Counted from the stretch's first letter, positions 30,201 through 60,315 are shown. The stretch: DNA of 64,000 bases from Bilabrum cf. latius (GCA_965178125.1 OZ237759.1:124001-188000); one strand, 5' to 3'. Numbers and translations: made by a program. Notes: generated from the sequence alone by a model not told the origin.

Positions 30201-30939
30201 CGGGGTGTATCACCTGCATGCCCCTGCGCCTGCCGGTGCGCGCCGCCACAAAGGTGGGGGTGGAGACGGCGGTCGAGTGAAATCGACCGCTCTCGGTGAG
30301 TAGCTGGAAGCGGAGGTCCTGGGACGCGAGGTCCAGTCCCACGGCTGGGACGTCCGCGTCAGAATAATTGCCAAGCGCAGTGATTGCTACCGTCCTTCGA
30401 GGGGCTAGTTTTGTCTGGTTTGCCTGCGCGAGAGGCTAGAATCCCCGAGCGGCAAAGGCCTTGAGCGTGAACGGCCTAGTCCTCTGCACCAAATCTGGGT
30501 ACAGTACATCCAGCTGCGCCTCTAGAACCGGTATGTGAACTCGATCGATCTCTTTCATAAAGGCCACCGCTGTGACCCTGTCTACGTTGCTGAAGCGGAT
30601 CAAGTCCCCAATGGCTTCCGCGACGTGGTTTCGGGTACCTAGGCTCTCTGTGCTGGACGCGTCGCCCTCCAACGCAGACCGCATTGATGCCAGTTCATCG
30701 ATATGCCCATAAAATGATTGTGCGATGGAATTAACGCGCAGCAGCGCCCTCTCGCTGAACGTACGGAAGTGCCGCTCACGAACGGAAGCACTCACGACAA
30801 ATGCGATCCCCACGGTCAACCCCAAGCACAAAAGCAGCTAAACTATGATCAAGAATACTGGGTGTACGCCACACATTAGGAGTTGTGGGTCATGGCGCTT
30901 CGCTGTGCTCGACTTCCTTCCATCGGCTTTTACTAGCAT
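24295..30939 (-). CDS. Membrane hybrid histidine kinase (CHASE-like sensor, HisKA, HATPase, receiver); intron 28391-28561
   Basis: Two TM segments flank the sensor region. H-box FVVHEQRNPLH, N-box GLTNAAKF, G1 VIDTGAGL, G2 GSGLGLAMAQELTKQMGG and receiver LVVDDE/LLDIVM/AMTAN/LPKP are in one frame across about ten TAGs; ends at TGA. Confidence 0.85.
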
Positions 30940-31342
30940 GCTAAACGCGCGGCTTCCCTACTGCTGTTTTATCTTCAGACTCAACCGGGATTCGTTTATT
31001 TTTGTCTAAATTTGCAGAAACTGCCGGGAATCGAGTGTACGGGGTTCTGCTGTGAAACCCAGGGCGGGGCTGGCGACTCCAAAATAGTACTCGGAGCTTC
31101 GCCTCCACCGATGGATTTCTGAAGTTTGTGACGCCCAAGCCGAGTTCAAGAGGAAACTTTCGACAGAAAATCGGTTGTGTTGTTAAGCATCTCAAACATG
31201 AGAACTACCAGACTGCGCGCTGCCCCTGCAGCCCTCGCAAAGACACCGCGTCCGCTGGCATGTCTCCAAAACACGGCCGACCGTGGCCATCACGCATTTA
31301 CAGCAAGCAAGCAAGCAGATTGGAGCCCCTTTCGACATCCAC

Positions 31343-32290: not shown

Positions 32291-32295
32291 CCATG
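32291..32295 (+). repeat. Left target-site duplication (CCATG)
   Basis: Identical to 49464-49468; this choice gives symmetric 7-G and 7-C element ends. Confidence 0.85.
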
Positions 32296-33356
32296 GGGGG
32301 GGACAACAGGTGGTGGTAGGTACACCAAGCGTTTAGGACGAGGGCTACGCTACGCTCGCCCCTCCTTTAAAGGCATATTTAGCAACTCAAGTGTTTCCCC
32401 TATAAACCTAAATGATTTCACAGGGGGTTCCCCAAGAACCCCTATAGAACCCCTCTATGTACCCATTTTCAGATATAAAATTTACTCCTACGAAGTAGGG
32501 GTAAATTGAAGAATTCTAATATTTAACCCCCTTATAAACTCTAACAGCAAAGACAGAGATGTTTTAGTAAAGTAGGAAAAAATGAAGAAATTAACCAAGT
32601 GTCCAAAATATCTCTGTGTTTGCTGTAGGAACGGAAGGATGAATTCCCAAGAGACCAAGAGACCAACCGAGGATTTCCCCAAGAGAACAAGGTATTTTAT
32701 CAAGAGACCGAGGTATGTTCCCAAGCGACAAACCGATAAACCGACCGATGAACCGACCGATGAACCGACCAAGGATTTCCCAAGGATTTCCCAAGGATTT
32801 CCCAAGGATTTCCCAAGGATTTCCCAAGGATTTCCCAAGCGACTAAATTGTTCTCCGAAGCAACCAAACCGATTACCCAAGAGATGATACATTATAAGGA
32901 AAACGAAAACGTATTTTAAGTCCCTTTGGAAAAGTCCCCCAAGATGCTCGGGCTTTGCCCTCCGCTCTTTTGATATCTTTTTCAAAGATTAAAATTGAGA
33001 GATTTTACAGGTCAATTTTAAGAGACTTAGAAAGAATAAATATATTTTCCAATTAAAATTAAATGTTGTAATTCCTATGATGCCACCATAAAAATTAAAA
33101 GGAAAACGAAAACGTATTTTAAGTCCCTTTCGAAAAGTCCCCAAAAAACTTGTCAATTTTACAGGTCAATTATAAGAGACTTAGAAAAAATAAATTAAGT
33201 TCCCAAGATGCTCGGGCTTTGCCCTCCGCTCTTTTGATATCTTTTTCAAAGATTAAAATTAAATGTTGTAATTCCTATGATGCCACCATAAAAATTAAAA
33301 GGAAAATAAAAAACAAATTATAATTGTTTTCCAATTAAAAACACAAAAATTGATTG
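32296..33356 (+). repeat. Left terminal inverted repeat (~1.06 kb, modular)
   Basis: Starts GGGGGGGACAACAGGTGGTGGTAGG. Matches the reverse complement of the right end to ~32940 except for 11-mer copy number, then contains duplicated modules up to ACACAAAAATTGATTG. Confidence 0.9.
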
Positions 33357-33372
33357 CCTAAAGTGGAAATGT

Positions 33373-33405
33373 CGTACCTTAAGCATAACTTACGTAGTCT
33401 ATAGT
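33373..33405 (+). promoter_or_regulatory. Extended viral upstream motif, copy 1 (CGTACCTTAAG..CGTAGTCTATAGTA)
   Basis: Near-identical to the motifs upstream of the helicase and pPolB start codons. Confidence 0.7.
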
Positions 33406-33417
33406 ACAACCACATAA

Positions 33418-33657
33418 ATGGCAAAATCACAAAAGGAACTCGAGAATTACATCTTGGCGACCAAAGAATGTCTTAAATCAGTCCCGTTTATTACAACACG
33501 AGAAGCATACGATATGGCCAAAAAGTACCTTGAATTTACAAAGACTATTATTTGGATTAATTATGATGATGACGATGACCTGCTTGCTGACTTTGAGGAA
33601 GCTAAAGATTTAAGTCAAATTGTAGTTGAATGGCACGAAAGTACCAAAACCAAATGA
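33418..33657 (+). CDS. Virophage hypothetical protein (79 aa)
   Basis: ATG preceded by the shared upstream motif; ends at TGA. Confidence 0.7.
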   Translation: MAKSQKELENYILATKECLKSVPFITTREAYDMAKKYLEFTKTIIWINYDDDDDLLADFEEAKDLSQIVVEWHESTKTK

Positions 33658-33722
33658 TTTTTTCCCAAGAATTATTTTCCCTACTTTACAAAAGTAAGGA
33701 GAATGATACAACTATATAGCAA

Positions 33723-34778
33723 ATGAGTAGCGCCTTTGAAAGAATATTACAATCCCTAAACATTTATCCCAACAGTCGTATTGTAAATTTAATGAAACGA
33801 CCAAAACGACCCAAAGGAGTAAATCGACCCCACGTAAATGTACCAGAACCTCACCAAGTGGTACAAATGGATTTATTATCATTACCCCACGACAATAATT
33901 ATAAATACGCATTAACTGCTATTGATTTACATACAAAGTAGGCCGATGCTGAACCGCTCAAAACCAAGCGTTAGAACGAAGTATTAAAGGCATCAAAAAA
34001 GATTTTCAATCGTGGTAATGTCCAGAAACCGCAGCACCGTTTGGAAATAGATAATGGAAAAGAATTTAACGCTTTACAAAGATATTTAGAAGAGACCGAT
34101 GTATTTGTACGAAGAAATAAAGCAGGTCGCCACCGACAACAGGCATTAGTGGAAAACCTAAATAAAACGTTGGGAAAAGCCATATTTACCCTATAGAACG
34201 TTAATGAGTTAAATACAGGTAATGAAAGCGTAGAATGGGTGGATATGCTTCCAAACATCATTGAAAACTATAATGAATATCAACTAGAAAAGTATATAGA
34301 AGAACCACCTTTACCCCCAGAACACTTCGACTTTACGTAGTGTAAAGGAGACGCTTGTAATATATTGGAAGAGGGTACAAGAGTTCGTATACCATTAGAA
34401 GAACCCAGAAAGGCTACAAATTTACAGCAAAAATTATCCGGAAATTTTCGTGCTTCAGATTTACGCTATAATCCAGAAATCAAAACGATAACTAAAGTAT
34501 TATTAAGACCGAGACAACCACCCTTATATGTTGTGGATTAGGATGATTTAGTGGCTTATCCAAAAGAGGAATTACAGATTATCGACTTTGATAATGAGGA
34601 CAATAACCGAGATGCTCAGACAATCTTTCTCCCAAAAAAAATAAAATCCGAGAACGAAACAGAATATCAAATAGAATGGAAAGATTTTCCAGAACCAGAA
34701 CATTGGACGTGGGAACCAAAGAATAAAATCCAAGAAATTGCTCCTAATTTAATTTTGGAGTGGGATATAGAAAATTGA
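33723..34778 (+). CDS. Retroviral-type (rve) integrase with C-terminal chromodomain, 351 aa
   Basis: DDE triad in QMDLL / EIDNGKEF / ALVENLNKTL; chromodomain EYQIEWKDFPEPEHWTWEP; 5 in-frame TAGs; ends at TGA. Confidence 0.92.
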
Positions 34779-34790
34779 GATGCCCCGTAT

Positions 34791-34823
34791 CGTACCTTAA
34801 GGATTATTTTCGTATTCTATAGT
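34791..34823 (+). promoter_or_regulatory. Extended viral upstream motif, copy 2
   Basis: CGTACCTTAAGGATTATTTTCGTATTCTATAGTA ends about 11 nt before the helicase ATG. Confidence 0.7.
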
Positions 34824-34835
34824 ACAACAACAAAA

Positions 34836-36497
34836 ATGTCATTCACTCTGCCGACTAAAGCGTATTCGTCAAAAAGCCTTATGGACCTATGTAATGCCGG
34901 AAAACAAGAGGAATGTATTCAATACCTTAAACAATACTTCTACCGCACCCACGAACAAGGTGGCGGGGTGTATTTTCTAATAGCATCTGAATTAAATCGG
35001 AATAACATAAGTGATGACGAACCCCAGAAACCAGTCTGGTAGTTCCTTACGAATAAAAATATTACTGAAAATTACCTGATTGGGGGACACTGTATTTACG
35101 CGATTGTGGGCAACAAAAGAGTAAAGACTTGGTCAGCACGAGACTGGTTCTTAAATGAGAATACCGACGTATTTACGATTGTAAGAAAATTCAATTCACC
35201 TACCGTTGATTACGACAATCAAACAATTAACGTTATGGGTTCACCTATACTTACACGGGAAAACTGTGGAAACATAGAGGATTTAACCGAAGACGCAAAA
35301 GCAGGCGCGACTATGATTTACGAACATATCCAGAAGGTGTGGACTTCAGAAGACAAAGAATAGTGTGATTTTGTGATGAAGTGGTTGGCTCACGTTATTG
35401 TGGGCGGAAAGAAGTTGGGTACAGCACTATATTTGAAATCTCCACAAGGAACTGGTAAATCGATGATTATTACCTTCCTTATGAGAAAACTACTCGGATA
35501 TACCCTCACACTATAGACGCTTACACACAAGATGCTTCAACCCGACGCCTTCAACTCAATTCTGGACGGGAAACTATTAGTCAATTTTAATGAAATTCCA
35601 AAAGCCTCGCCAACTATTTGGGACGCCATGTAGGCAACACTAAGAAATCTTATTACGGAAAAACACTTTTCCTGTAATGAGAAGTTTGTCAAATCCGAAA
35701 GTCGTCCGAATACATTCAATTTAATTATTGATACGAATGATAGTCCAATCAAAATCACCGAGGAAATCCGTAGATATTGTGTTTTGGATGTGAATACATC
35801 TAAGAAAGGAGACAAAGAATACTTTACAACACTAAAACGTTTTACAGAAAATCCAGAAGTGGCTAAGGCATTTTATATGTTATTGGTTGAAATCTATGAT
35901 ACATCACCAGACTTTACAGGACAATTCGCACCAAAATCAAAGAATTTTTACAAAGGAATTCTTGATGGCGCACATCCGGTTTTAAAAATTCTAAAAGAAG
36001 AGTGGCTGGACGAAGGCAGAGATTTTAAAATGACAGTCTTGGAATTCCGCAATTATCTAAAGCAGGAACTGAACGGTAGAGTGAAGAACCTTGGTACACC
36101 TATGATTAAAACACTATTGTCAGAGGTAGGTGTTCATTCAACGATGAACAAATAGAGAAAACAAGAATTTAATGTGAAACACGCAGACTTACTAAAAGGC
36201 TTCCAATCTAAATTTTAGGCACTTCGTCATTCTGCTGAGATGGAAAAAGCAAAATCCGAGGTAGATGTTCTTCGAGAGTAGATTAGAGAACTACAGAAAC
36301 AAGTCGCATAGCAGTAGGAAACGATTGAATAGTTGGAATTAGAAAAGGAGATTACACCGACGGAACAAGTCCATAAGAAAATCCAGAAACAGCTGAGTGT
36401 TGAGAATAGCATCGCTATTCAAAAATGGATAAAAGAGAACCCACCAAAGAACAAAAAAGGAAAACTTTCCAAATTCCTCTGTAAAATTGAGAAGTGA
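34836..36497 (+). CDS. Superfamily 3 (D5-like) helicase, 553 aa
   Basis: Walker A SPQGTGKS, Walker B-like LLVNFNE, motif C IIDTN, IRRY and a coiled-coil tail; about ten in-frame TAGs; ends at TGA. Confidence 0.9.
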
Positions 36498-36504
36498 GTG
36501 AGTT

Positions 36505-36538
36505 CGTACCTTAAGAATAATTATCGTATTCTATAATA
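36505..36538 (+). promoter_or_regulatory. Extended viral upstream motif, copy 3
   Basis: CGTACCTTAAGAATAATTATCGTATTCTATAATA upstream of the pPolB ATG. Confidence 0.7.
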
Positions 36539-36554
36539 TAATAGATACTATAGA

Positions 36555-38396
36555 ATGCCCGAAATCGATTTTACGGAACCCCAAAGAACCAAATTGCGTC
36601 TTAATGGGAAACCAATATGGAGTATGCGATTTGAGAGCGAGGACCTTATCACCGTAAAAAATGTCTTGGAATTTATTCGTGATTACGACGATGGTGGTGA
36701 AAATCCGTTTGATGACTTTAAATTTAAGGTGAATATCAATTACCAAGATACAGGTTGGCGAACACGAAGCACTTGGATTACTACAGATGATTTAGAAAAT
36801 CAAGATAGTTTATGGGCGGGCTACGAAGACGACGATGACGACGAATATAGAAAATTGAATTCTTTTGAACTACTGCTTATTAGAAAGCCAGAACCAGAAG
36901 GCGGTGCTGACGAACATAACGATTGTTTATATAACGCTATAAAACAGGCTTTTCCTTTTTCAGTTGGTCGTAAGGTAAATGTAAAGAGCGCAAAAGGCAA
37001 ATGGAAAACTACTATTAAAAGATTGTCGAAGTCCGACCTCAAAGAACTCTTGAAAATTGGACGTGATGACCCCGTTGATTACAGAAGAATACCAGAGATA
37101 GAAGACGAACTTCAAGTACGCATTCATGTTGTAGGCGACTTTGAATACACATCTGGAAAAACTCATTTTGACCGTCTTCTAACTGTTTCATTAACAAATG
37201 GGCATTACAAGTATGTTCCCCCCATTAGTTAGAAAGAATTATTTACACCGCCGTCTAAAGAACCGTGTACGCTAATTACCCGCTTGTATCAATCCGAGAA
37301 TTCTTATTTACTATTTGATGGAGACCGTGAGTATCAATCAGAAGGCATTACATCAGTTTCCAAGGATAAATTCATCTTTGAAGTCAAGTCCAAGGAAGAA
37401 CTAAGAACAAAACACGAAGAACGGATGAAAAATGTAAGGGCATTAGCGAAGGAGACGGGTGGATATATGGATTTATCACGATTTATGTTTAGAACATCCC
37501 TATTTGTAAAGTCGTATTTCAGTAAGTTTTCCAAACTTTACCCTGCCGACCCGATTGACCAAGTTGAAGCACTATGGATTTCTAAAGCCTCGGGTGGTGG
37601 ATTGAATTGGGCAAACAAGAATACTACATTAAAAAACGCATACCAGTACGATATTAACTCATTTTATCCAAGTATTATGAAGGGTACATTTACATTTCCG
37701 GTTAGAAGGGGTAAGTTCGTAAAATTTGAAGTACCTTCAAGTGGTTTCTATCCGTACGGCATTTTTAGGGTACATATTGAAAATATCAATTCTAAATTGG
37801 TACAAAAAAGAAAAAACAATTATTATACCCAATATGACATTAACCGAGCGATTGAGACGGGCGCTTAGGTGTCTCTGATTGAAGACGGTGAAGCCAACGC
37901 TTTACTTTACGATGAGACAACAAGGGTGAAGGCAAATGGACTGTTCAAAACGATGATTGAGCGATTGTACGGTTATAAAAAATAGGGATTGAAGTGTGCG
38001 AAGGAGATACTAAATAATATTTGGGGTTCTCTATGTTAGAAAAACACAATCACAAAAACACTCCGAGATGGTGATTGTATGAATTTTAGACAATTAAAGA
38101 ACGCGTATCCTAAAGCATCTGGACGACTTGTATCGGGTATACTATATGACGAAGAGTACGATTACAAAACAGCCTACGCAAGAATGGGCCCCTTTCTGAC
38201 TGGACTTGGACGAAGTAAATTGTCCAAAATGATTGAGCCATATCTTGAAAACATTCACTATGTCAACACGGATGGTTTCATTAGTGAGAAAGAATTACCT
38301 CTAAAGTTATCAACGAACCTTGGGGGTATGAAGTTGGAGCAATCAGGTGAATGTCAAATTATTCACAGTAAGAAGAAAATTTTTAGAAAAGATTGA
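36555..38396 (+). CDS. Protein-primed family B DNA polymerase, 613 aa
   Basis: Motif A YDINSFYPS, motif B KEILNNIWG and motif C YVNTDG in one frame through TAGs at 37230, 37866, 37983 and 38037; ends at TGA. Confidence 0.9.
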
Positions 38397-38397
38397 A

Positions 38398-38670
38398 TTA
38401 AATAGTCTGCTTTTCCTTTAGTCTCTAAATTTCCTATCGCAAACTATCAAGTTCATCCATAATATTAATTTGTTCCCTTTTTGTGTCTTCCTCTTTTTGA
38501 AGCCAATCAAGGTGTTTTTTGGTTCTACAATGATGTGATTTATTGTACTTCTTATATACACCACCACAGGAACACTTTATCTATTCTCCAAGTTTTTCCT
38601 TGTTTTTCCGGTAGTATTCACGGGCATACAGCTTATCCTGTTCTTTTCTTTCTGAATGACTGAGTGTCAT
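38398..38670 (-). CDS. Zinc-ribbon/C2H2 protein of the type common in virophages, 90 aa
   Basis: YAREYYRKNKEK..IKCSCGGVYKKYNKSHHCRTKKH; 3 TAGs; ends at TAA. Confidence 0.75.
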
Positions 38671-38711
38671 TTTTGTATTCTATAGTATTATACTATAGAG
38701 TTAGATTTAAG

Positions 38712-39353
38712 TCATACATTCTACCAAGCAATTTTTAGAGCATCACTTTTCCCATATCCTCTACCTCTTAACTACTGAGCGATTTTCATTGCTAGTTTTG
38801 CTTTTGGGTTTTTCCGACGGCGCCTCCCTTTTCCAGTTTTTTGTGGTTTAAAACTCTACTTCGCTCTTTCGTTCGAGCCCCAATCAGGCACTTCACCACC
38901 CATTCGCATTACTCTAGCCTATCTCGATGATAATAGTTCTTTCTAACTATTTCCCTTCTCTCTAGCATCAAAAAATTCACGCATAGTATCTCTCCGTTCT
39001 GACGCATATTTTCTATGAATTGCCTAATTAAAATCATCAAGTGTTGTGTCGTGTTGCTCGTGTAGTGATGGTGATAAGAATTTTAGTATACCCACGTCAT
39101 AATCACCATCACTATCTTTGTCAATTCCTAGCGTATCAAATTCTTGTTCGGTCTTTTCGGCGAGCATTTCCATCATTTCCCTTTCCTAAGGGTTTACATA
39201 TACACGATTAGCGTACTTTTCCCCTATACTCTAGTGCTTCCTCAATCCTTTCAAAATTGCTAGTGCTTGTCTAGCGTCTTTCCCCAAACTCTGATGTGGC
39301 TAACTAGCCAGTAAATGTAGTTGTTCTTCGGTATAATCATCAACACCCGCCAT
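38712..39353 (-). CDS. Virophage hypothetical protein (acidic N-terminus, basic C-terminus; possible core protein), 213 aa
   Basis: ATG after TATAGTA; the inspected segments are open when TAG is read through; TGA stop in frame. Confidence 0.65.
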
Positions 39354-39373
39354 TTACTATACACAATCATAAA

Positions 39374-40630
39374 TTAATCATACGCAAACATTTTCCAAGC
39401 CTACTTAAGTGCTGTCTTCTTGGATATTCCTTTTCCTCTTAAAATGGACGCCATTTTCATAACTCTTGAACGTTTTGTTTCACACTGACATTGACCTCCA
39501 AATATTTCCAGATACATACCCGATACTGGGTCATTCGTATGCGAATGGATTTCTTTCATAATTGGTCTTCCAACTGTTTTAGTTGCTAAATCCCAACCTT
39601 CCTTAAAATCTTGTCCAAAATCCCTTTCTGTGTTCTACTTATGCTTTTCCTAATTTTTTCTTAAAGCGTTTCTTACATCTTCCGGTAAATCATCTAAACC
39701 TCTCCCGAACCATTTGGAAAAATACCCAGCCACATCAGTAGCAGCATTAGCCACTCTCTTAGTAAATCCCGATACGTTCTTAGCAATACTCTCTACATCC
39801 TACATAATAAATTGGTTTAAGGGTGGTGTCAAAAACCCATTTGTGCGTAGAACATCCTAAATGAACTTTTGACAATTCAACGAGAAAGCACGATACTAAT
39901 AAAAATTGTATTCTCCTATTTTCTGTAAAGTGGTTTCATATAATTCCCTTACTGTTTTCTAAGGTTTTCCATTAATATTTACTTCCATAGTTTGTGTTTT
40001 CTTGTTGGTGGAAAATCTTGAGGACAAATTAACCCTCTCATTCTTCTCAAGATAAATCTTTTTTCCACCTCCAAGGTTCAACTCTAAGGCTAAGTGAAAA
40101 AAATCATTATATCCGTGTTTATTTTTTAACTTTTTCATTTTTCCAAGGGTAATCCAGTTAAGCAACCGATTAATCGCGCCACTAATGGGGGTTCTAATTA
40201 CTTTCATAGCTATAATTGTTCTATCCCCGTATTGCTGTAGTGTTCTCTGGACTTCGTTTGAATTCCCATACACTACTCCACCCTTAAGCTGTTGCGCCAG
40301 CTAACTGCGCCGAGAGGGGGTGCTTCGCAAACCATCTTTTAAATACTAATGAAGTGTGTTGGATTGTGTGGATTTCTTCTAGGATTTCTTTTTTGGTTTT
40401 CCTTTTGTTCCCACACCATCTTTAAGCTGTTGCGCCAGCTAACTGCGCCGAGAGGGGGTGCTTCGCACACCATCTTCAAACTTAATTGCTTTTTCAAGGG
40501 CTTCTTTAGAATAAGGATGTTCACTTTTCCATGTCCTTGTTGTTTTACTCTTTGGTTCTTTGACACTAATGTACGTCTTAACAAAACCAGAATTCATTTT
40601 TCCGCCACTAAGTGTATAAAAACTATCCAT
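39374..40630 (-). CDS. Virophage protein with a permuted papain-like (PPPDE/LRAT-like) domain, 418 aa
   Basis: FFHLAL..YLEKN..YRAFSLNCQKFI (His before NC); ORF-track fragments 40439-40630 and 39959-40273 share one frame; ends at TAA. Confidence 0.65.
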
Positions 40631-40655
40631 TTAGTATAGGCTTGTATTAAAAAAC

Positions 40656-41273
40656 TCATAGACGACTTCCAAGACCGAAGGTTTTCCGGACGAATTCCTC
40701 CAGTTGCTAAAAGGATGAATAGACACAGTACTAACTCTAATGTAATCCAGCGATTAAATTCGTTCTTGAGCGTTCTACAGACAATAAGTCCCCCGATTTT
40801 TTCCCTTCACGGATTTCCTCAAAAAGACTGTGAGAAGGCACACACACAAAAATTGAACTTTCCTTAAATAAATCTTTCGCTAATTCCAACGAACCAACCA
40901 TAACAATTAAACGCCTGGATTTCTTTGTGAGCCAATCCGCTTTAATTTTTTCATACACTAATCTTGACTAAGAGTAATAAAAGAGACGGTGGGTGCTTTC
41001 ATCACCATCAATTAGCATTTTCTCCATTTTCTATTTTTCCTACCCTGAAATCTAACCATTTACGCATTCATCTAAGTCAATGACCAAAGTGTCTTTATCA
41101 ACACTTTCTATAGAGCGACACAAAGTAGTTTTCCCAGAGCCTTTTGGAACAACCACGCAGGATTTCTGTTTCTAAGTTCCGTCTTTCGTCCACCAAGAAT
41201 ATAGACACCGACTACCAGAATACATTAAAGGAGCCAAAGTCCCAGCAACCATTACAGCAGATGATACTGACAT
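40656..41273 (-). CDS. Small P-loop NTPase/kinase-like protein, 205 aa
   Basis: VVVPKGSGKTTL followed by LVIDLD; hydrophobic N-terminus; ends at TGA. Confidence 0.7.
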
Positions 41274-41328
41274 TGTTTTGATATACTATATACCAAGACA
41301 AATATTTATTGGTTTACCCTTTTCATAC

Positions 41329-43095
41329 TCAAGCTTGGAGCATAGCGAGTAATTGATTGCGAGAGAGAGATTTACCACCTGTTAATCCAGAACCCAACTT
41401 GGCACCTGTTAAGCCCTTGCCTTTCTTGGTAGTTTTTCGGGGTTTCCTTTGGCGTCCCATACCAGCCATTTCACCCACCATTTTAGCGGTGTCAAATACC
41501 TACTTACCATCCTTTAATACTTTTTTGAGATTGCCTTTCTTTACCCAATCAGCGGTTTTGTGTGCGAACTTTTTTAAGGCGTGTCTAATCTTTTTCCCAA
41601 GACCGCGACCGTGTAGTCCTGATAATTGACTTTCATATACTACGGGTAGTTTAGAGGCGGAAAGAACATCTGCCCGTGAGATGACACCCTGCTAATACTC
41701 AATCTTAGAACCATCAATCACATTCATTACTCCTTCGTACAATCCCACAACCACACACTACACATTTTGGTAATCTACAACATCATTATTCTTCACTCGT
41801 AGGGTGATAGACAATTGGTTAGAGCCGTTGCTTCCATTTGTCTAATCTACATCTAGGCTCAAATCCTTGGCGGGGTCGATGGAGAGAATTGCGCCTGATA
41901 GCACCCTATCCCCGAATTTACGCATAGCCCATTCCGCGTATTGCTATTCAAGTCCATTGCTTCTGGATAAGTCCCATAGCTACTGAGGTGAAGCATCTGC
42001 GAGTAATCCACTTTGGTTATTCATCTCAATAGATATTCCCTCAATTCCAAGGAATGTGTTTCCCTAATCTACTGAGACGCTGGTAGGTGAGCGACGGGCA
42101 AACACAAATAGACGAGATGGAACTGAATTGCTAAGTTTAATATTGTTGTTCGTAAGAGTTGCTGTTGTTCCTGCGCTGATTGTTGCACCATAGCTTTGAG
42201 TATATGAAGTCATTTCAAAAATATCATAGGATACCTGTTTTGGAAGGACAAACCCTGTTTTAGGGGTAATCTATTCAAGGTATAAATAGGGGTTCTGGAC
42301 ATCTACCGACTAAACGGTAGCAGTTAAGTCCTATTGTGGAATACGAGACCACACGGTTCTACTCAGTTGCGACCAATTGATATCCAAGGAAAGAGTTTCT
42401 AAACCGAAAATGGCTGGTTGTTCCTATTTACTTTCGTAATGGAAAGGTGGGCAAAGAACCGCCTCAGTACATTCAAAGACAAGAACACGATTTTGCGTTT
42501 GACCTGCGGGCACTGGAGTGTTATCCATTTGAACCAAGTTATAAAATCCACTTCCTCTTGCGGGTTGGTCCTAAAGCACGTCCTCATACGAAGCAAGAGC
42601 GTTATTTGTAGCCTAACTCATCATCGCGTATGAAGGCACATTGTCGCGTCTATACACACTATCAAGGCAATTCACACGATGAACATCATCATCTAAACAA
42701 TGGGACACTACGTCCATTATTTCCGCGTTATTCTAAGTAAAGCGAATGTTATTGATACCAACTGTCTGTGTTGCAATGGAGCGATTAAGTGGATATGAGC
42801 GTGGAGCATCGTAATCTGGTGTAAATGGTACGAGAGCACCTGCGGTTTGATTATTCACGGAAAAGGTAATGGAAAAACGGCAAGACACGTATGCGCGGCG
42901 GCATAAACCTACACCTGAAGGCATACTAATATTCCAATTCACACCTGAATTATAATTACCGGCTGAACCAGATGGAGCGTATCTGCGAAACGTTCGGTTC
43001 TCATAACCTTCTTGAACTTCATAAGGCTTTGGTTGTACGTCTAATGTTGCGGGAGATACTTTGACTGGCTGAAGGGCAAATGTATTCAATGACAT
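41329..43095 (-). CDS. Virophage major capsid protein (double jelly-roll), 588 aa
   Basis: APRSYPLNRSIATQTVGINN, NNALASY..PARG, TEAVLCPPF, VPSRLFVFARR and ISIEMNNQSGLL..LWDLSRSNG resemble virophage MCP motifs; Gly/Lys-rich C-terminal tail; ends at TGA. Confidence 0.9.
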
Positions 43096-43200
43096 TTTTG
43101 TTTTCCTTGTATATTATATACAACGAATAAAATTCTATCACTCAGTTCTTTAGAAAAGAACGCAAACTCGTTTCTTCATAAAAGTAATACAAAACTAATT

Positions 43201-44310
43201 TCACTTCCGTTTCTTAAATAAAAACTTCACACTCACACTTCCGTGGCGTAAATAAAGAGGTCTTAGATTTGAATAATTGTCTTTCCAATATAGATTAAAC
43301 TAAATCCTATCTACTGAATGTGTATCTAAAAAATCAATTTCGTGGAGAATATGGGGCTGGTATTGAAGAACCTACTAATTAACTGTTTCAGTATCATCTA
43401 ATACACAATCCATATCCACTAATAAACTCTCGGTCCCTGAACCTGAATTTTGAACTGTATTAGTGGATTGTCCATAGGCGGATTTCTAGGATATTGCCTC
43501 ACTCCTCACTGGAAGACTTGAAGATGTGAAAACTATTCCGCGAAAAATCTAAAACTACACTAAACTCCCTCGTTCCTAGGTCATCATTAATCTGTAGTCT
43601 CCCGTTGGGTTTCCCTCGAAGTATGCCTAAGGTTCATATTTTCCAACAGAAGAGCCATCATCAAATAAAACATTCGTTCCTAAGGATTTGAATAGAATGC
43701 TTGCGTATAAGTCGTCATCTTGGATATCCATTCGTTCCATAGGAAAACCCGTCATCAGTTCGTTAAGGGCTTCGTTCAACACTAATTTAAATTTCTGTCC
43801 TGAGTTTTCCTCGTCGTAATCGGGATTTGCTACTAAACTGAACTTTCCATCTTTAAAGAGTAAAACCGGAACTGATGTAATATCCGCTGATAAAGCATTC
43901 TATATGGTTTCGTTGAATAAATCAACAAAATGCTACACGGAATACATATAATAATAAGGAACAAACTACATAGGATTGGAAAATGATGGTTGGTTTTCCC
44001 CTGTTAACTAGGGTCTCCACTGAATGCTTGAGGTCCACAAACTTACTCCGTCTTCATCTGTAATGCTTATTCTATACACCGTTTGATTAGGATTTGAAGA
44101 TGGATTTTTCACTTTATCGGTTTCTATGTGTGGAACCCATAAAGGTATTGAATTGGTGCTTATGGAAAACCGGAATACTGACATCGTATAATCACCAACA
44201 TCCTTATCTAATAATGGCTACTTGCGGGTTTCGCTATAGGTCGCTGGTTGGAAAGTATCTTCGTTATTTCGTATGTTTGCGGTAATGTAAAATCGGTCTG
44301 GAGAACTCAT
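43201..44310 (-). CDS. Virophage minor capsid protein (penton), 369 aa
   Basis: N-terminal FYITANI..ATYSETRK(TAG)PLL..DYTMSVFRFSI..IPLW and C-terminal SVKFLFKKRK; directly upstream of the MCP gene. Confidence 0.85.
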
Positions 44311-44366
44311 TTTACTATAGACGTTTATAATTATGGGGTGGGTTTGATTACTTTTCTAAAGTATAA

Positions 44367-44858
44367 TTAAGATGGTGTAATAAGTGAACCTGACACTAAG
44401 GATTTCCAACTAGATGTAGAAGAACTGCCAATCGCCACATAGACATCGTTGTCGCTTCCATTATACACTAAAGCGCCCTTGAACTTTCGCTCTGCTGACG
44501 TATTAATAGGGGTAGAAGCGTCAGCCAATGTAGCTCCAGCAACCTCACTCAGCCCAACAACACCCTCTTGAGAAGTCTTGAATGAACCAACTAGTGAAAT
44601 ATCGCATCTTTCTCCTTCTTCGCTCATACTGAACTGACAACCAGCAGACGCTCCGTTTTTTCCAAACCGTAGAACAGTTTCACCCCACTCCATATAAGGC
44701 TCTCCGTCTTTGAATTCAATACTTGGATTGCCTATGACTGCTCCCGTAGAGTTAGTAATTGCGGACACTTTAATTGCGTCGCTACTCACAACATTACACG
44801 TAATAGTTTGAGACATAAGGTCTAGACTGTTCTTAGATAGAAGATTTGAAACTGACAT
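44367..44858 (-). CDS. Putative fibre/spike-like virion protein, 163 aa
   Basis: Uninterrupted ORF next to the penton gene; N-terminal MSVSNLLSKNSLDL and Ser/Gly-rich beta-like composition. Function is inferred. Confidence 0.5.
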   Translation of the reverse strand: MSVSNLLSKNSLDLMSQTITCNVVSSDAIKVSAITNSTGAVIGNPSIEFKDGEPYMEWGETVLRFGKNGASAGCQFSMSEEGERCDISLVGSFKTSQEGVVGLSEVAGATLADASTPINTSAERKFKGALVYNGSDNDVYVAIGSSSTSSWKSLVSGSLITPS

Positions 44859-44923
44859 TTTATAGTATATCCACAGAAATAATTTTTATCAGGTTGCCAA
44901 AAGATGTAAATAAGAGGTTTTGG

Positions 44924-46105
44924 TCAATCTTTTCCTAAAAGATGTAATAGTTCCATAGCAACCTAATGATGAATATCTTTATCGGCTCCTTTTACTTTCT
45001 TGGCTACATTCATTGCTGTATCATAGATAATCCTTTTTCCACCTCGTAATCCTTTCCCCTTTTTTGGTTTTCCACTTTCTTCTACAGTCATTGCGCGTGA
45101 TGGTGGGTCTTCTAAATCAGGCTACTAAATTCCATAGGGCGGACTAAACCCCGTAAATCGCTACACAGGTCTAGTAGCACGTTTTCCAATTCCCTGCTCA
45201 ATTTCTATCCTACTCGGCATATCATAGTACTCACCAGTTTCTGGGTCCCATGCCCCCGGAGTGCTTCCTTGCGGTAGTGGTCTTTCATTGCTCGCTGCGG
45301 CTAATATGGCATCTAAGTCTTTTGATGTTTTTGACGCATTACTACTTGAACCCTCTTGAAAATGCTAAAACATATTTGTCTGCCCCTGTGATGTTCTTTG
45401 TGAGAAATTCTTTCCCTATTCTAAATCCCACGCTATTCGTTGTTTTTCAGTTAAGGGTCTGTCTTGTTGTATTCTTTCTCTGGCTCTTTCCAATAACTAT
45501 TTATACGCACCCGAAGACCTTTTTGGAAGCTGTACTTGTGTTGGAGCGGAAAACGTGTTTCTTCTTGTTGTTCGAGCAGGTGTTTGTAAAGATGTTGGCT
45601 ACTAATCAATTCCCAACATTCCCTACGGTATTCGTTGTCCGGATGCCTCCTATATAACTTTCCCTAATTCTAAGAGTTGTTTTCTGTCTTCAGCTGGAAC
45701 TCTCTGCAGTCCTTCGTAGCCTTTCCTTTGAAATCTCTCAATATTTACGTATTGACGGGCTAGTTGTTGCTTCATTTGTGGAGACATATTGATATTACCA
45801 ACAAAATCCTTCAATGCTTTCACTGCTGGACTTACATTTTTACCCTCAATAATACCTTTCATTATACCAGATATTGACTTAGATATGATTTCCTCGTTGC
45901 TTTGGTCTGCCTATTTTCTCTACGCTGGAGTTCCATACCTTCCACTTTCTTTTAATCGTTCAATTTTTGCCCTTTTCCTTATAAAATCACTATATTCTGT
46001 TTCTAAATCTACGTCGTCCCTTGCCTGTAAATCTAACATTTTAGCATTGTCCAGTTCCCTTTCTAGGGCTTGCTGAATAAGAGCATTCACTTTAGCAGTT
46101 TTCAT
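44924..46105 (-). CDS. Virophage hypothetical protein (low complexity, candidate core protein), 393 aa
   Basis: Manually translated; open throughout when TAG is read through; contains GKGLRGGKR; ends at TGA. Confidence 0.7.
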
Positions 46106-46168
46106 TTACTATAAGCTTTTATAAAAAGCTTGACCAAAAAATAAAAAAAAGTGTTTGTGTATAGTATA

Positions 46169-46408
46169 ATGGATATTGATAAGTGGATTATATAGAGAAC
46201 CAAACAACTCGCGCTATAGAAAGAACAAGACGCTTTAAATAGAGTTAAAAACAAACATATTAAAGTTGGAAAAGGCCGTAGTAAGCCTAAGCGGAAAGTG
46301 AGCGCCAAAATGAAACGCCGCAATAAACTTGTAAAAATGGTGATGTAGTAGACTGGTATGAGTTTACCTCAAGCAAGTCGGTATATACGAGAATAGAATA
46401 TTATTTAA
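46169..46408 (+). CDS. Small basic protein, candidate DNA-condensing core protein, 79 aa
   Basis: GKGRSKPKRKVSAKMKRRNKLVKMVM(TAG)(TAG)TGMSLPQASRYIRE; 5 TAGs; TATAGTA upstream; ends at TAA; absent from the ORF track. Confidence 0.75.
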
Positions 46409-46437
46409 AGAAACTTTTATAACAAGTTTGACCAAAA

Positions 46438-47340
46438 TTACATAAGGTAAGCCTACTTTTCTCCTAATAAATACCTCGGGTAATTCCTGTGGACACATAC
46501 CCACCTAGAAGGCATTTTTAAGACTTTAGAGATTTCTTGTTTCTCAAGTCCTATATAATTTTTTAGTAAATACCTTAGAGAATGTGCGGAAGAACACTAA
46601 GGGAATATAACGAACTTATGACTTTCCGCAAGAATAATTCGGGTACTTTTATAGTTGGTAGATAAATGACTTGTGATTAATACAGAAGTATTCGAATGTC
46701 TTCCAACCTACAATATTTCATCCTGTAAATGATTGAGGGCTTCCCTTAACTTCTTATCTTTGATTGTATCAATATCATCCAAGATTACTAAGGCGTCCCT
46801 TAATTCCTAATGAATATCAATCGGGTTCTCCACCAGTTCCTCATTTAAAATAATCCTTTTCAGTCCTTTCACTTCATCTAAGACTTTATCCTACTATACT
46901 CGTGAAAATAAAATAATTCTCCTGTTTGGAAACATTCTGTGATAATTCTTAGCATATTTGGAAACCCAAGTAGACTTCCCAGCACCTGATGGTGCGGTGA
47001 TATAAATGACCTCTCTTCCTTTTGGATTTGGTAATGATTGGAATTCACCCTATTTTAATGTAATCTCTTTATGTTTCTTTTCCTATGCTTTTTCATACAA
47101 GTATTTGATGTCTTCGTCTAGGGGTTCGACCTGTTTGATTAAGTGTCGTGCTAATAAATCCATTTTCCTCTGCGGAAATCGTTTCCCTGTAAGTGATGAT
47201 ACTTGAAAATCCTAAAATGACATACTATCATCTCCAAATTGGTTGTCTGTGTTTTCCGCCGTGTATAAAATACGTTTTCCGTGAGTGTCATATGCGATGG
47301 GTGTTGATTTTGTAGTTTCCTTCCAAGAAAAATGAGCCAT
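46438..47340 (-). CDS. FtsK/HerA (A32-like) genome packaging ATPase, 300 aa
   Basis: Walker A YITAPSGAGKST, Walker B LVILDD and EIL(TAG)VGRH..LITSH; ends at TAA. Confidence 0.92.
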
Positions 47341-47529
47341 TTTAGTGTATTTACTATATGTTTTTATTTTTTCTAAAGTGTTTTGTCTTTTTGTTGAAAA
47401 CTTATTTTGAATGATTGTCTTTTATGCTATCCACAAATTCCAAAACGGATTTTGTAGAAATACTTCTACGCTTAAATAGTGGTTAAGAGAATTCATCTCC
47501 CCCAATATATGTTTCTATAATAAATATAT

Positions 47530-48066
47530 ATGGATTATGCTCTTAGCGATAGTGATATTCGTGTTCTCCTCCAAACTCCACCAAATATTAAGGGGTTTCT
47601 TCCTACGTCGGTAAACATCGTTCCATATACAGAATTAGGATAGTACAATAGTATTGATGGATTATTTAGTCGTTGTAATTGTTGTATCATTCTATACCAA
47701 GAAGAAATAAATTCTGGACACTGGGTGTGCTTATTTAAGCGTAATAAAACAATATACTTCTTTGACAGTTATGGAATTCGTCCTGATAGGCAATAGCACA
47801 CAATGAGTGAAAGCGTGCGGAAACGTTTTTATGAAGACCCTGAGTTAATATATTTAATGTATCATTCTCCGTATAAGATTGACTATAACCCATATTAGTT
47901 TTAGGCGGATGGAATGGATATAGCAACCTGCGGGAGACATTGTATAGTTCGTCTTTGGAATAGGGGAAAAAACGCTGATTAGTATAAAAAGTGGGTGGAT
48001 AAGGTTTGTAAGAAACATACATTAAATCCTGATGAATTAGTGTATTTATTGACGTGTCATTTATGA
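47530..48066 (+). CDS. Adenain/Ulp1-like cysteine maturation protease, 178 aa
   Basis: GHWVC (His), FFDSYG (Asp) and F(TAG)ADGMDIATCGRHC (Gln, Cys); 5 TAGs; ends at TGA; absent from the ORF track. Confidence 0.92.
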
Positions 48067-48345
48067 ACTCCAAAGGTAAAAATGTGAGAAGAACTTTGGG
48101 GTTCTTGGTTTTACTTCGATACCGTGTCGTTTGAAGTATCTAAATTGGCGGTCCGTATCTAAATGATTTAAATGGCTGTAATACCCTATTCTATCGTAAA
48201 ATTGCTAATACCGCCTATCACCAAACGATGTAATATATTCATCATTTTCGTCAAAAACATCATACTTCTTATTCTTGCGTCTTGAGGGTGCTTTAAATAG
48301 AAAATTCTCAACAACCTTTTCAAAATCGTAGGTATGTAGCTTCAT
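48061..48345 (-). CDS. Conserved small virophage/polinton protein (Tlr6F/DUF5754-like), 94 aa
   Basis: RKNKKYDV..SFGDRRY..YFKRH..TPKFFSHFYLW; its stop overlaps the protease 3' end by 6 nt (TTATGA). Confidence 0.6.
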
Positions 48346-48376
48346 AAGTACTTTATAGTATAGTCTTCTACTTATA

Positions 48377-48490
48377 TCAAAGCCCGAGCTTCTTGTATTC
48401 CTTTAGTTTTTCGTGTAATTTTTTCCAAATACGTGGATTAATTTGCTTGACAATATGCTCTATCATCAACTCCTTTAAAAATGGGTTCAT
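48377..48490 (-). CDS. Very small virophage ORF (37 aa)
   Basis: ATG directly after CTATAGTAA; MNPFLKELMIEHIVKQINPRIWKKLHEKLKEYKKLGL. Confidence 0.4.
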   Translation of the reverse strand: MNPFLKELMIEHIVKQINPRIWKKLHEKLKEYKKLGL

Positions 48491-48638
48491 TTACTATAGT
48501 GATATAGAATGGTCTTAATTATCATCTCTTGGGAAATCCAATCTTTGAAAAAGATATCAAAAGAGCGGAGGGCAAAGCCCGAGCATCTTGGAAAATTAAT
48601 TTTAATATTTCTTTGTATCCTATATTGTCAAAATTTTT

Positions 48639-49463
48639 CAATCAATTTTTGTGTTTTTAATTGGAAAACAATTATAATTTGTTTTTTATTTTCCTTTTAA
48701 TTTTTATGGTGGCATCATAGGAATTACAACATTTAATTTTAATCTTTGAAAAAGATATCAAAAGAGCGGAGGGCAAAGCCCGAGCATCTTGGGAACTTAA
48801 TTTATTTTTTCTAAGTCTCTTATAATTGACCTGTAAAATCTCTCAATTTTTGGGGGACTTTTCCAAAGGGACTTAAAATACGTTTTCGTTTTCCTTATAA
48901 TGTATCATCTCTTGGGTAATCGGTTTGGTTGCTTCGGAGAACAATTTAGTCGCTTGGGAAATCCTTGGGAAATCCTTGGGAAATCCTTGGTCGGTTCATC
49001 GGTCGGTTCATCGGTCGGTTTATCGGTTTGTCGCTTGGGAACATACCTCGGTCTCTTGATAAAATACCTTGTTCTCTTGGGGAAATCCTCGGTTGGTCTC
49101 TTGGTCTCTTGGGAATTCATCCTTCCGTTCCTACAGCAAACACAGAGATATTTTGGACACTTGGTTAATTTCTTCATTTTTTCCTACTTTACTAAAACAT
49201 CTCTGTCTTTGCTGTTAGAGTTTATAAGGGGGTTAAATATTAGAATTCTTCAATTTACCCCTACTTCGTAGGAGTAAATTTTATATCTGAAAATGGGTAC
49301 ATAGAGGGGTTCTATAGGGGTTCTTGGGGAACCCCCTGTGAAATCATTTAGGTTTATAGGGGAAACACTTGAGTTGCTAAATATGCCTTTAAAGGAGGGG
49401 CGAGCGTAGCGTAGCCCTCGTCCTAAACGCTTGGTGTACCTACCACCACCTGTTGTCCCCCCC
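48639..49463 (-). repeat. Right terminal inverted repeat (~0.83 kb; an extra module copy lies at ~48539-48590)
   Basis: Reverse complement of the left end; terminates CCTACCACCACCTGTTGTCCCCCCC. Confidence 0.9.
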
Positions 49464-49468
49464 CCATG
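49464..49468 (+). repeat. Right target-site duplication (CCATG)
   Basis: Matches 32291-32295. Confidence 0.85.
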
Positions 49469-50039
49469 TTCGGAGACATCAGTTTCGATATCTCGCGAAC
49501 GAAGCCTCAATACCCCCCCAAACTTTACAATTTCATCGTAAACTATTCGACTCAAATCTGATGATGCGTACAAACGTTCAGTTGGCCGTACAGAGTAGGA
49601 AAAAACAAGCAGGCAATCATTTGACCCAGCGTAGCTTACCCAAAGCGATCCTCCTGTACTGCTCCTCCTCAGTTTCAGCAGACACAGCGGCGACAGCGCA
49701 TGCAAAGGCAAACATAGCGGCTTGAACCTTCATGATAGTCTCCGGCTGTTATTGTGCTGATAGCCCATGCGCGAACCGTATGGTATTGGAGATAATCACA
49801 CACAACTAATGACAGCCTGCTGAGCTGAGCAGTGAGCTCGACCAGGCCACCAGGGGGAAAGGGGTCCCCAGGGTGGAGCTTAGGTGGGTTAGGCCATTGC
49901 AGCTGAAGTGGGCCTGGTTCCAGATTTGGGGAGAACATGCCTCGTAACAGGGTGCGCTATTGATTTCACAAAATATCAGATGGCCCCCCGAGCAGCACAA
50001 AACTTCCGAGAAGAGTGGCTGCAATCATAATGGCATGGC

Positions 50040-51557
50040 TCATGCCTCGATCCAGTCGGCTGCCCTCTGCCCCGCGAGCATACCTGCGGCCCACAGCCAG
50101 ACCCCCGCCGAGCCGCTCGCCAGCGCCATGAGGCCGGGGCCGGGGCACACACCCGACAGGCCCCAGCCCAGCCCGAACAGCCCCGCACCCACAATCAGCT
50201 TCCCGTCGATCCGAGTAGTGGTCGGCAGCTGGTACACCGGCCGCAGCCAGGGGTGCGGCTGGACTGCGTCTCCATCAGCGCCATCAGCACCATCAGTACA
50301 GCGCGCATCGCTAGCGTCGAGTTGAGCCCCACCCGATGCACCGTTACTCGCGTCACCAAGGCGCACATGCCCAGCGAGCGCATCCGTTTTCCTTGCATGC
50401 TACGCCTTCTCCCAGGCCCTCTGCTCCCGGAGCACGCCCTGGAACACCGGCAGGCTCACCCCCGCCGCGCCCCCCATCACGAACGCGAGAGACGGGTCCC
50501 AGCCCCCGGGGTGCATCACGTCCAGAAACGACATCACTTTGACCGGGTTGGCCATCCCGCTCACGATGAGCCCTCCCCCGAACGCCAGCCCAAGGCCATA
50601 AGACACGGCGGTGTCTGCGAAGGCCCGTCGTCGCATGAACTCGCGCGTCACTGGCGACAATTCCGGCCCGCTTGCTTCTCCCTCTCGCCGCCGTTCTTCC
50701 TCTCCGATCACCGTCCCCGCCCCGGCATCCGCCCCGATGCCACCCAGCATCGCCCGTGCGTCCCTGTGCGCGAGGTATGCGAGCCAAGCGGACATGGCGC
50801 CCACTGCGGCAGGGGCAGCCACCCCCAGGGGCACCTGGGCCAGGCTGGGGCTGTACTGCACGCTGGATGCAAGCACATCCTGCGCCACAGCCGCGCCTTC
50901 GCTCGCCCCATCGCCTTGTCCTCCTCGCCCCACAGCAGCAGCTGCAGCAGCCGCCTCGTCCTGCAGCAGCCCCTGCACGGCTTGCCACTCCGGGTCTTGG
51001 TCAGGCACCGATCCGCCTCGAAGCAAAGGCCGAAGCGCGTCGATGTGCTGGGCGCCCCATGCGGAGACGGATCCTGTCGCCATGAACGAAGCGACTGCGG
51101 CAGCAGATCGAGGAGACAGGCGGGCGAGGCCGCACACCCCGTGACCGCTCGTGCAGCCGCTCCCGAGCCGTGTTCCCACCCCAACCAGGACGCCACCAAC
51201 AAGCAGACCAAAATTAGAGATGTGATACTCGCTCATTGGGCCGAACACTGCATCGGGGGCGATCGCCCCGGCCGCTGCTCCGGCTCCAAGGAGGCCTCCC
51301 ATGAACGCTCGCCGCCAGCCAGGTGATGCATCCGCGGGATCGAGCCCACCCACAGCTTTTCGCGGGTTCACAATACCTCGATGTAGAATGCCCGATATAC
51401 CCGCTACTCTGCCTGTTGAACGAAGTTTCAGTGCGGCTGTTCCACCAATCAGCGCGCCGCCAATCGTCGACGCCACAATCGACATGTGTGGCGACAATGA
51501 TGCTGATAGCGCTGCTGGAGCGGTCGCTAATAGCTCCAGCATAGCATACGAAGCCAT
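50040..51557 (-). CDS. YeeE/YedE-family sulfur (thiosulfate) transporter with two fused halves
   Basis: [49 protein letters not shown] and [18 protein letters not shown] at 50400; ends at TGA. Confidence 0.85.
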
Positions 51558-52014
51558 AATGCTAGAAACTCGGTCTAGTTGCTGGCTTCGGTGCACAGAG
51601 AGATCCGGATGCGTGCTGCTGACAAAAACCGGAAGAGATTCAGGTCAGCTGATCGACGAAATTAGGTAGTCTACAATTAGGTGAAACGGGCTCGACTGCG
51701 ATGGCGACCAGATACATACAGAGCTGTGTGCAGGCTTCCTGTTTGTTGGCTTTCGCCGGCATTGGTCCAAGATCCGCTACACTCACCGCACTAAGCCGTT
51801 AACACTGAACCTTTTAACCTTGGCAAGAACCGCAATGATAATCAATTGCAGTGCAGCTATTATGCTCGCTGCACGCAACGAGAGGTCAGTACAGGTGGCT
51901 CAACTTGCCGAAAGGGTGTTGGCGCCGCGCCGCTCACGAATGGAATTTACGGAACCAACCGCTGGACTGGGACCTATCTGCAAGTTGTGCAGTAGCCGTT
52001 GAAGTCGGCACCAA

Positions 52015-54825: not shown

Positions 54826-55096
54826 GCGAAGGAGGGGGTGCGCCGCCTCAGGCTGCAGTTTGATGTAGATGGTTGCTACATGCTGGCTCGCGATGCAAAC
54901 ACCCAGTGCTTCACACACCTTCTGGCCTTGTCGAAGGGGATTGAGATATGCAGGCACTCCAGCATGCAGTGCCTCCGCACTGCAACTGCAGCGCACTGAC
55001 CGCTGTCGTGGTTTGCTGCGCGGCCGAGATAGAGACGGGCAGTTTTCAAATATCTGCCTACGCCAAGGCAGAATATCTCTGCATACGTGGTATGCA

Positions 55097-56869: not shown

Positions 56870-57020
56870 CCCATCCGGCTGGTTCGGTGGGGGGTGGTGT
56901 AGTCTAGCGGGGTCCGGGCCTGTGAAGGTGGCCATGCACTATCCCTACCCCACCTCCATGAATTGCACAGTTTGTTGTCTACATCCAGATCCATGTTGAT
57001 CCAACACTGTCTATCTGCAT

Positions 57021-59945: not shown

Positions 59946-60315
59946 ATGTGAGCACTAAGGCGGATAGAATCAATAAACTAAATATGTGTGTGCTGGCAGT
60001 CTGCGTCTCGAATGGCACGCAGCTGAGAGCTGGTATCCGTTGCCAATAAACAAGATTTTATTGTCGGCCTGCACGCTACCTCAAGCACGGTCGCAAAATT
60101 GACGATTTAAAAGGGCACGTCTGTGGACTGTGAGTGATGTCCGGGCTTTTAGTTGTCACTATTTTAAATATGTTTATAGATAGCGACCTTAAAGTTGATG
60201 AAGTAGACTGAATACCTTTGATTATGTCCGTCCTAGTCGCAGCTTGTCCTTTCACATCAAACGGTGTTGAAACTAATCGAGTCAAATGCGATCTGTAGTT
60301 CTATGGTAGGATAGA

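Follow-up and report, generated by a model that had tools for sequence, protein, structure and literature searches.

An intact virophage in a flagellate genome carries TAG as a glutamine codon at a neutral share

The endogenous polinton-like viruses of Streblomastix strix use the code of their host, in which TAA and TAG both mean glutamine (Gln), and the authors who described them infer a long association (Bellas et al., 2023, PMC10120064). Here we describe a virophage, dense in in-frame TAG codons, that is integrated in a stretch of 64,000 nucleotides (nt) from the genome of Bilabrum cf. latius (GCA_965178125.1, OZ237759.1:124001-188000; the whole stretch is called the window below). Like the S. 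strix viruses, it is an integrated small DNA virus that has a double jelly-roll capsid gene and uses a stop codon reassigned by its host. Unlike them, as far as their published description goes, it has TAG alone reassigned, a capsid of the Sputnik V20 type, free relatives in metagenomes that share the code, and a share of TAG that proves to be neutral. The element also resembles mavirus and the elements of Cafeteria burkhardae in being a low-GC virophage within the 15-25 kilobase (kb) range, with inverted ends, an rve integrase and a protein-primed polymerase, and the flagellate genome around it is very GC-rich and intron-poor, as that of C. burkhardae is described to be (PMC8547959; PMC10945749). 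It differs from mavirus in its capsid protein, which matches that of Sputnik (3j26_A in the PDB, 5.4e-29) far more strongly than that of mavirus (6g45_A, 1.6e-08). The mavirus-like elements of C. burkhardae use the standard code.

Phages of code 15 do not have the code of their hosts, and many of them bring a suppressor transfer RNA (tRNA) of their own, whereas here virus and host share one code. The host reads TAG and no tRNA gene was found in the 64-kb window, so this is not the phage arrangement of a standard-code host with a suppressor tRNA borne by the virus. TAG is read as glutamine in the code-15 phages as well (PMC9523058). A 2026 catalogue (GVMAGs V2, PMC13524828; method in PMC11721457) presents more than 1,300 giant-virus genomes as better called with alternative codes, code 15 being listed, and its authors suggest hosts with variant codes. 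In those genomes as in our element, genes of a eukaryotic virus open under stop reassignment, with code 15 among the codes; in the catalogue's account they are tied to no identified host or virophage, whereas here a small parasite sits inside the host chromosome (PMC13524828; PMC11721457). An ochre-reading tRNA in one virophage clade has been taken as a hint of stop reassignment in its host (PMC6905037), and nuclear codes that give UAG and UAA different meanings have been described (Panek et al., 2017, PMC5304391). As in those nuclear codes, TAG alone is reassigned here and TAA stays a stop, in this case in a flagellate of 60-70% GC. One organism with such a code reportedly reads UAG alone as Gln, and TAG-only reassignment is rare among eukaryotes. 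A literature search on stramenopiles and bicosoecids turned up no relevant report of a UAG-only code, and a search of the main texts of papers returned no description of stop-codon reassignment in a virophage. That viruses are confined to their hosts by a variant code is, as a general idea, not new.

We consider it very probable that the window holds an intact virophage in a flagellate that reads TAG as Gln, that AT pressure has brought the viral TAG codons to a neutral share, and that the lineage has long been confined to such hosts, the resulting barrier being a by-product. The 16 open reading frames (ORFs) of the virus contain TAG, CAA and CAG at 111:115:46 in 4717 codons, with at least one TAG in 14 of them and no in-frame TAA or TGA; the genes end in TGA (ten) or TAA (six). 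Host genes, sampled as 15 ORF segments with Pfam support and read from first ATG to stop as single frames without intron models, give 44:60:446 in 11533 codons. These segments hold 0-7 TAG each (13 of the 15 have some), all end in TGA or TAA, and the IFT122 segment of 1071 codons has no TAG. TAG thus makes up 2.35% of viral codons vs 0.38% of host codons, a 6.2-fold difference (Fisher p = 4e-28). The first-pass annotation of this DNA had proposed comparing these ratios, and its own counts are borne out: five TAG in a 79-amino-acid (aa) basic protein, two of them adjacent (codons 60 and 61), five in a 178-aa ORF, about ten in the helicase (exactly 10), few in host genes and none in the IFT122 exon.

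The excess follows base composition. In the virus, TAG/(TAG+CAG) is 0.71, next to 0.71 for CAA/(CAA+CAG), 0.70 for TTG/(TTG+CTG), 0.70 for TTA/(TTA+CTA) and 0.67 for AGA/(AGA+CGA); the host values, in the same order, are 0.09, 0.12, 0.16, 0.21 and 0.44. The virus resembles the host in its TAG:CAA ratio (odds ratio 1.3, p = 0.29), and TAG accounts for about 41% of viral Gln codons. Because the share of TAG equals that of comparable pairs, and because TAG:CAA is unchanged from host to virus, TAG behaves as an ordinary synonymous codon that tracks base composition. Its use in the virus is neutral, and no selection for TAG is needed. The explanation by AT-richness that had been offered for the excess is upheld by these ratios. 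AT pressure would drive CAG to TAG exactly as it drives CAG to CAA, until the neutral share is reached.

The meaning of the codon can be read from relatives. When metagenome contigs were scanned, seven loci (L001-L007) proved to have a capsid gene 55-62% identical to that of the element, and one of them, L003, has nine genes in common with it, at 44-61% protein identity. These nine gene pairs were aligned with TAG masked as X, the relative being read from DNA so that the test is independent. The 104 TAG sites, in either genome, that face a non-TAG codon most often face glutamine (27), followed by lysine (15), serine (11), glutamate (9) and threonine (8). The log-likelihoods for the meaning of TAG are -262 for Gln, -317 for lysine and -324 for glutamate, which places Gln ahead by 55 log units. 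On the host side, a GT22 glycosyltransferase gene has a TAG at residue 388 inside an HQRGP-like motif, and this residue is Gln in 13 of the 13 distant homologs that cover the site. Most simply, host and virus are read as having one code in common, code 15, in which TAG means Gln while TAA and TGA remain stops: TAG stands in frame inside conserved genes and aligns with Gln, and TAA and TGA still terminate. The host, whose DNA makes up 1-32290 and 49469-64000 of the window, has 60-70% GC and long, intron-poor genes, among them IFT122, which matched generic IFT families only, and a hybrid histidine kinase. A protein 87% identical to the GT22 glycosyltransferase (P0022) is recorded as a 236-aa fragment that ends one residue before TAG codon 351 of the window gene, as if a standard-code caller had stopped at the TAG of a related organism.

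The recoding extends to the relatives. The capsid genes of L001-L006 have 2-6 in-frame TAG each and no TAA or TGA; L007, a capsid fragment of 157 codons, has no TAG. Reading TAG as sense raises the ORF content of L001-L003, the three contigs tested, three- to five-fold. In the nine common genes, L003 uses 43 TAG, 86 CAA and 66 CAG. At the 87 TAG sites of the window in these genes it has TAG at 11, CAA at 12, CAG at 10, another residue at 50 and a gap at 4; conversely, where L003 has its 43 TAG, the window has TAG at 11, CAA at 5, CAG at 2 and another residue at 25. Synonymous codons have thus been exchanged both ways between two lineages whose proteins are about 57% identical, and the recoding is old and clade-wide. 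A long residence in the TAG code, which had been proposed from the AT-rich codon choice, is supported, since recoding is also seen in the relatives, whose proteins are 44-61% identical, and since TAG, CAA and CAG sites have turned over. Beyond this clade, the next relatives of the polymerase are at most 32% identical. The capsid protein, used as a single query against a viral contig collection, found no relative, and a capsid alignment query found one distant IMG/VR virophage (L008, 25% identity), which uses the standard code. The metagenome relatives are on record as capsid fragments of 109-150 aa: standard-code gene callers miss or fragment a whole virophage clade.

The element forms an island of 32-42% GC at about 32.3-49.5 kb in a window that otherwise has 60-70% GC. 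It spans 32296-49463 (about 17.2 kb), with limits that fall outside the 33723-48345 first annotated. Under the standard code the island shows short ORFs only; once TAG is taken as a residue, the 16 ORFs tile it with short intergenic gaps. Its terminal inverted repeats are 100% identical over the outer 653 nt. Their arms pair as 32295-32806 with 48953-49464 (512 nt, 100% complementary), 32802-32942 with 48850-48990 (141 nt, 100%) and 33094-33356 with 48639-48901 (97%). The outer 170 nt or so of both ends are GC-rich, in contrast to the remaining viral DNA. Each inverted end also holds six tandem copies of an 11-nt unit (32758-32845 and 48953-49027), beside shorter 12-nt repeats. The inverted ends, together with the target-site duplication, show integration by an rve-type route. 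Features of a mavirus-like element are present, namely an rve integrase, a protein-primed family B polymerase (PolB, with a Pfam score just under the cut-off), inverted ends and a short target duplication, with the exception that the capsid is not closest to that of mavirus. The capsid and penton genes are those of a Sputnik-type virophage, with a double jelly-roll V20-type capsid and a V18/19-type penton. The element is an intact, recently integrated virophage, and six public sequencing runs from two studies contain it, with no RNA run listed among those that do. One run (X7) aligned to almost nothing, even in the host flank, and thus gives no information on presence or absence. Contigs from three of the six runs were aligned to the element, and 38 coding differences were inspected among 385 differences in all: 29 are synonymous (one being TAG to CAG) and 9 nonsynonymous. 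Among copies or strains, the genes are under purifying selection when TAG is read as Gln.

A promoter-like motif links the genes. The window has 17 exact copies of TATAGTA, 16 being inside the element, vs 1.33 expected from shuffles. For most start codons a copy lies, in either orientation, no more than about 35 nt upstream, frequently as TCTATAGTA. A block of about 52 nt that contains it precedes the three transcription units of the replication module (33372-33423, 34790-34841 and 36504-36555), the copies being 67-85% identical to the first. The motif is also found upstream of L003 genes, and in that contig the helicase gene and the polymerase gene each follow a block of similar sequence. Virophages borrow the transcription machinery of giant viruses through short, uniform promoters near the start codon, and a TCTA-type late promoter serves the Cafeteria giant virus and mavirus.

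A life cycle can be proposed from these elements. The integrase with its chromodomain, the helicase and the protein-primed polymerase form the replication and integration module of a virophage whose capsid genes are of the Sputnik type. A helper giant virus would transcribe the viral genes from the TATAGTA motif, and the viral messengers would be read by the TAG-decoding translation system of the host cell, which they must use because the virus carries no tRNA. The lineage would long have been confined to hosts that read TAG as Gln, behind a barrier produced by drift and not by selection. Any helper giant virus would need either to cope with this code or to use it as well. The first-pass annotation had drawn from this the prediction of an undescribed recoded giant virus; as a prediction this is sound, but "undescribed" is too strong, since giant-virus genomes with alternative codes, code 15 included, are already presented in the GVMAGs V2 catalogue (PMC13524828). 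We only tentatively extend the picture to three levels, at somewhat less than an even chance, with the flagellate, a recoded virophage clade and an unseen helper giant virus all writing Gln as TAG. If this were true, an AT-rich helper genome would use TAG at about the level of CAA; the helper may also encode a tRNA-Gln(CUA) that serves a TAG demand six times that of the host, and TATAGTA would be its late promoter.

Several points weigh against the account given above. Within host genes, support for Gln specifically comes from the one conserved site in the GT22 gene; two other host TAG sites, in an aminotransferase and a pseudouridine synthase, are uninformative, the solved homologs showing no conservation at either position. 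A 90%-identical capsid protein (P0001) has Gln at 13 of 13 capsid TAG sites, and was set aside as not independent: the protein collection it belongs to evidently reads TAG as Gln in such contigs, because a 613-aa polymerase, 100% identical to ours, is recorded there despite the four TAG of its gene. The shuffles behind the TATAGTA count used the whole GC-rich window, which understates the expectation for the AT-rich island, and the dependence on a giant virus is drawn solely from family membership and the motif. Finally, TAG is not spread evenly over the viral genes. It makes up 20 of 76 Gln codons (26%) in the integrase, helicase and polymerase genes vs 91 of 196 (46%) elsewhere (p = 0.0025).

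This last contrast is what favors the idea that TAG enrichment was selected, either as a host-range barrier or as a timing device of the kind seen in recoded phages, where the recoded stop is frequent in late genes. The GC content at third codon positions is equal in the replication module (0.347) and in the remaining genes (0.341), and because of this equality pure drift does not explain the difference. An exchange of modules between lineages is a possibility for the origin of the TAG-poor replication module. Selection is nonetheless unlikely, given that the overall share of TAG matches that of neutral codon pairs, that L003 has no such contrast between modules (11/50 vs 32/145, p = 1.0), that the host itself reads TAG, so that infection requires no switch of code, and that no suppressor tRNA is encoded. 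The genetic-code "lock" on host range proposed earlier is thus retained in part. With TAG in 14 of 16 genes, a standard-code cell could not translate the virus, as had been stated, and a barrier to standard-code hosts follows; the word lock suggests a function, which is not shown, and a side effect of drift fits the data.

That viral TAG is decoded not by the host but by a suppressor tRNA which the helper giant virus supplies appears very improbable. The sixfold higher viral demand would suit such a supply, and some virophages and giant viruses are described as carrying tRNAs, including tRNAs for Gln and ochre-reading ones (PMC6905037); against it, host genes contain 44 in-frame TAG, one of them at an invariant Gln, so that the cell must decode the codon without the virus. 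That the TAG codons are damage, left by C-to-T change at CAG in a standard-code virophage that decayed after integration into a dead pseudogene array, is scarcely credible: L003 does have CAG at 10 of the 87 window TAG sites in common genes, and one variant copy or strain reads CAG at a window TAG, which is the pattern that the first-pass annotation had named as a sign of drift, but decay would also have made TAA from CAA and TGA from CGA, and there are 0 TAA beside 115 CAA and 0 TGA beside 43 CGA, the inverted ends match at every one of 653 nt, none of the 16 ORFs is broken, most differences between copies (29/38) are synonymous, L003 carries TAG at 7 sites where the window has CAA or CAG, and host genes hold TAG too.

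The features are collected in Table 1. ORFs were called with TAG as sense, families were assigned by Pfam cut-offs, structures by PDB match, and orthologs by comparison with contig L003.

Table 1. Features of the integrated virophage and of its host flanks, by position in the window, with the number of in-frame TAG codons.
Feature	Position	Strand	TAG	Remarks
Host GT22 glycosyltransferase	9046-10929	-		TAG at residue 388
Host kinesin	13233-18266	+		
Host hybrid histidine kinase, one half	24295-28557	-		
Host hybrid histidine kinase, other half	28558-31182	-		
Target-site duplication, left copy	32291-32295			CCATG, 5 bp, read directly; last G could equally open the inverted end
Left terminal inverted repeat	32296-33356	+		about 1.06 kb
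79-aa acidic ORF	33418-33657	+	0	overlaps start of integrase gene; no Pfam family above cut-off
Integrase, rve core and C-terminal chromodomain	33630-34778	+	6	PF00665 1.7e-09, PF00385 6.7e-06, both past cut-off
Superfamily-3-type helicase (DUF5906 / VapE-like)	34836-36497	+	10	PF19263 3.3e-15; 56% identity to L003 ortholog
Protein-primed family B polymerase	36555-38396	+	4	PF03175 1.3e-05, 24.7 bits vs 25.8 cut-off (just under)
90-aa ORF	38398-38670	-	3	homolog in L002 and L003
213-aa ORF, basic C-terminus	38712-39353	-	9	no family found
418-aa ORF	39374-40630	-	11	44% identity to an L003 ORF
205-aa P-loop protein	40656-41273	-	8	54% identity to L003 ortholog
Major capsid protein, Sputnik V20 type	41329-43095	-	14	PF22031 2.2e-27, PF21915 1.9e-22
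Penton (minor capsid) protein, Sputnik V18/19 type	43201-44310	-	13	PF21507 9.9e-11; 3j26_N 1.7e-13
163-aa ORF	44367-44858	-	0	no family found
393-aa ORF	44924-46105	-	13	157-aa stretch 57% identical to L003
79-aa basic protein	46169-46408	+	5	TAG at codons 9, 17, 60, 61, 76
P-loop ATPase, presumed DNA packaging	46438-47340	-	9	61% identity to L003 ortholog
178-aa ORF, putative clan-CE cysteine protease	47530-48066	+	5	
94-aa ORF beside right end	48061-48345	-	1	DUF5754 3e-06, 27.6 bits vs 27.4 cut-off
Right terminal inverted repeat	48540-49463	-		
Target-site duplication, right copy	49464-49468			CCATG

Three assignments call for comment. PF03175, which the polymerase itself narrowly misses, is found in its relatives. 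The candidate packaging ATPase, for which an FtsK/HerA type was sought, matches generic AAA and P-loop families alone, and these at the cut-off or slightly below it (AAA_22, 26.6 bits vs 27). As a single query, the 178-aa ORF had no match in Pfam, and the PDB gave spurious WD40 matches only. In its family of 25 sequences G63, H64, Q125, C134 and G135 are invariant, 3 of the 25 members match the Ulp1-type Peptidase_C48 (best 1e-4), and the top PDB matches of the family profile are clan-CE enzymes, weak at E values of 0.27-0.88. Judged by these sequence features, the name of protease is plausible.

Two other observations concern the host flanks. The halves of the hybrid histidine kinase lie in one frame, split by a single TGA at 28555-28560; the 60 or so residues after it look non-coding, and then a stretch like the kinase N-box resumes. 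This is probably a short intron and not a read-through stop. The kinesin gene has a coiled-coil tail at 16500-17000 in which a 14-residue unit (SEARGTIESQDKQL) is repeated about eight times in tandem.

Catalogues of recoded giant-virus genomes, in their account of these genomes, lack what this locus provides, a recoded virus tied directly to a host chromosome. The speed at which a virus brings a reassigned stop codon to neutral use can be tested cleanly in this natural case. The locus also leads to a definite prediction about the helper giant virus, and it flags a eukaryote with a rare TAG-only reassignment, a host code that may itself merit a report.

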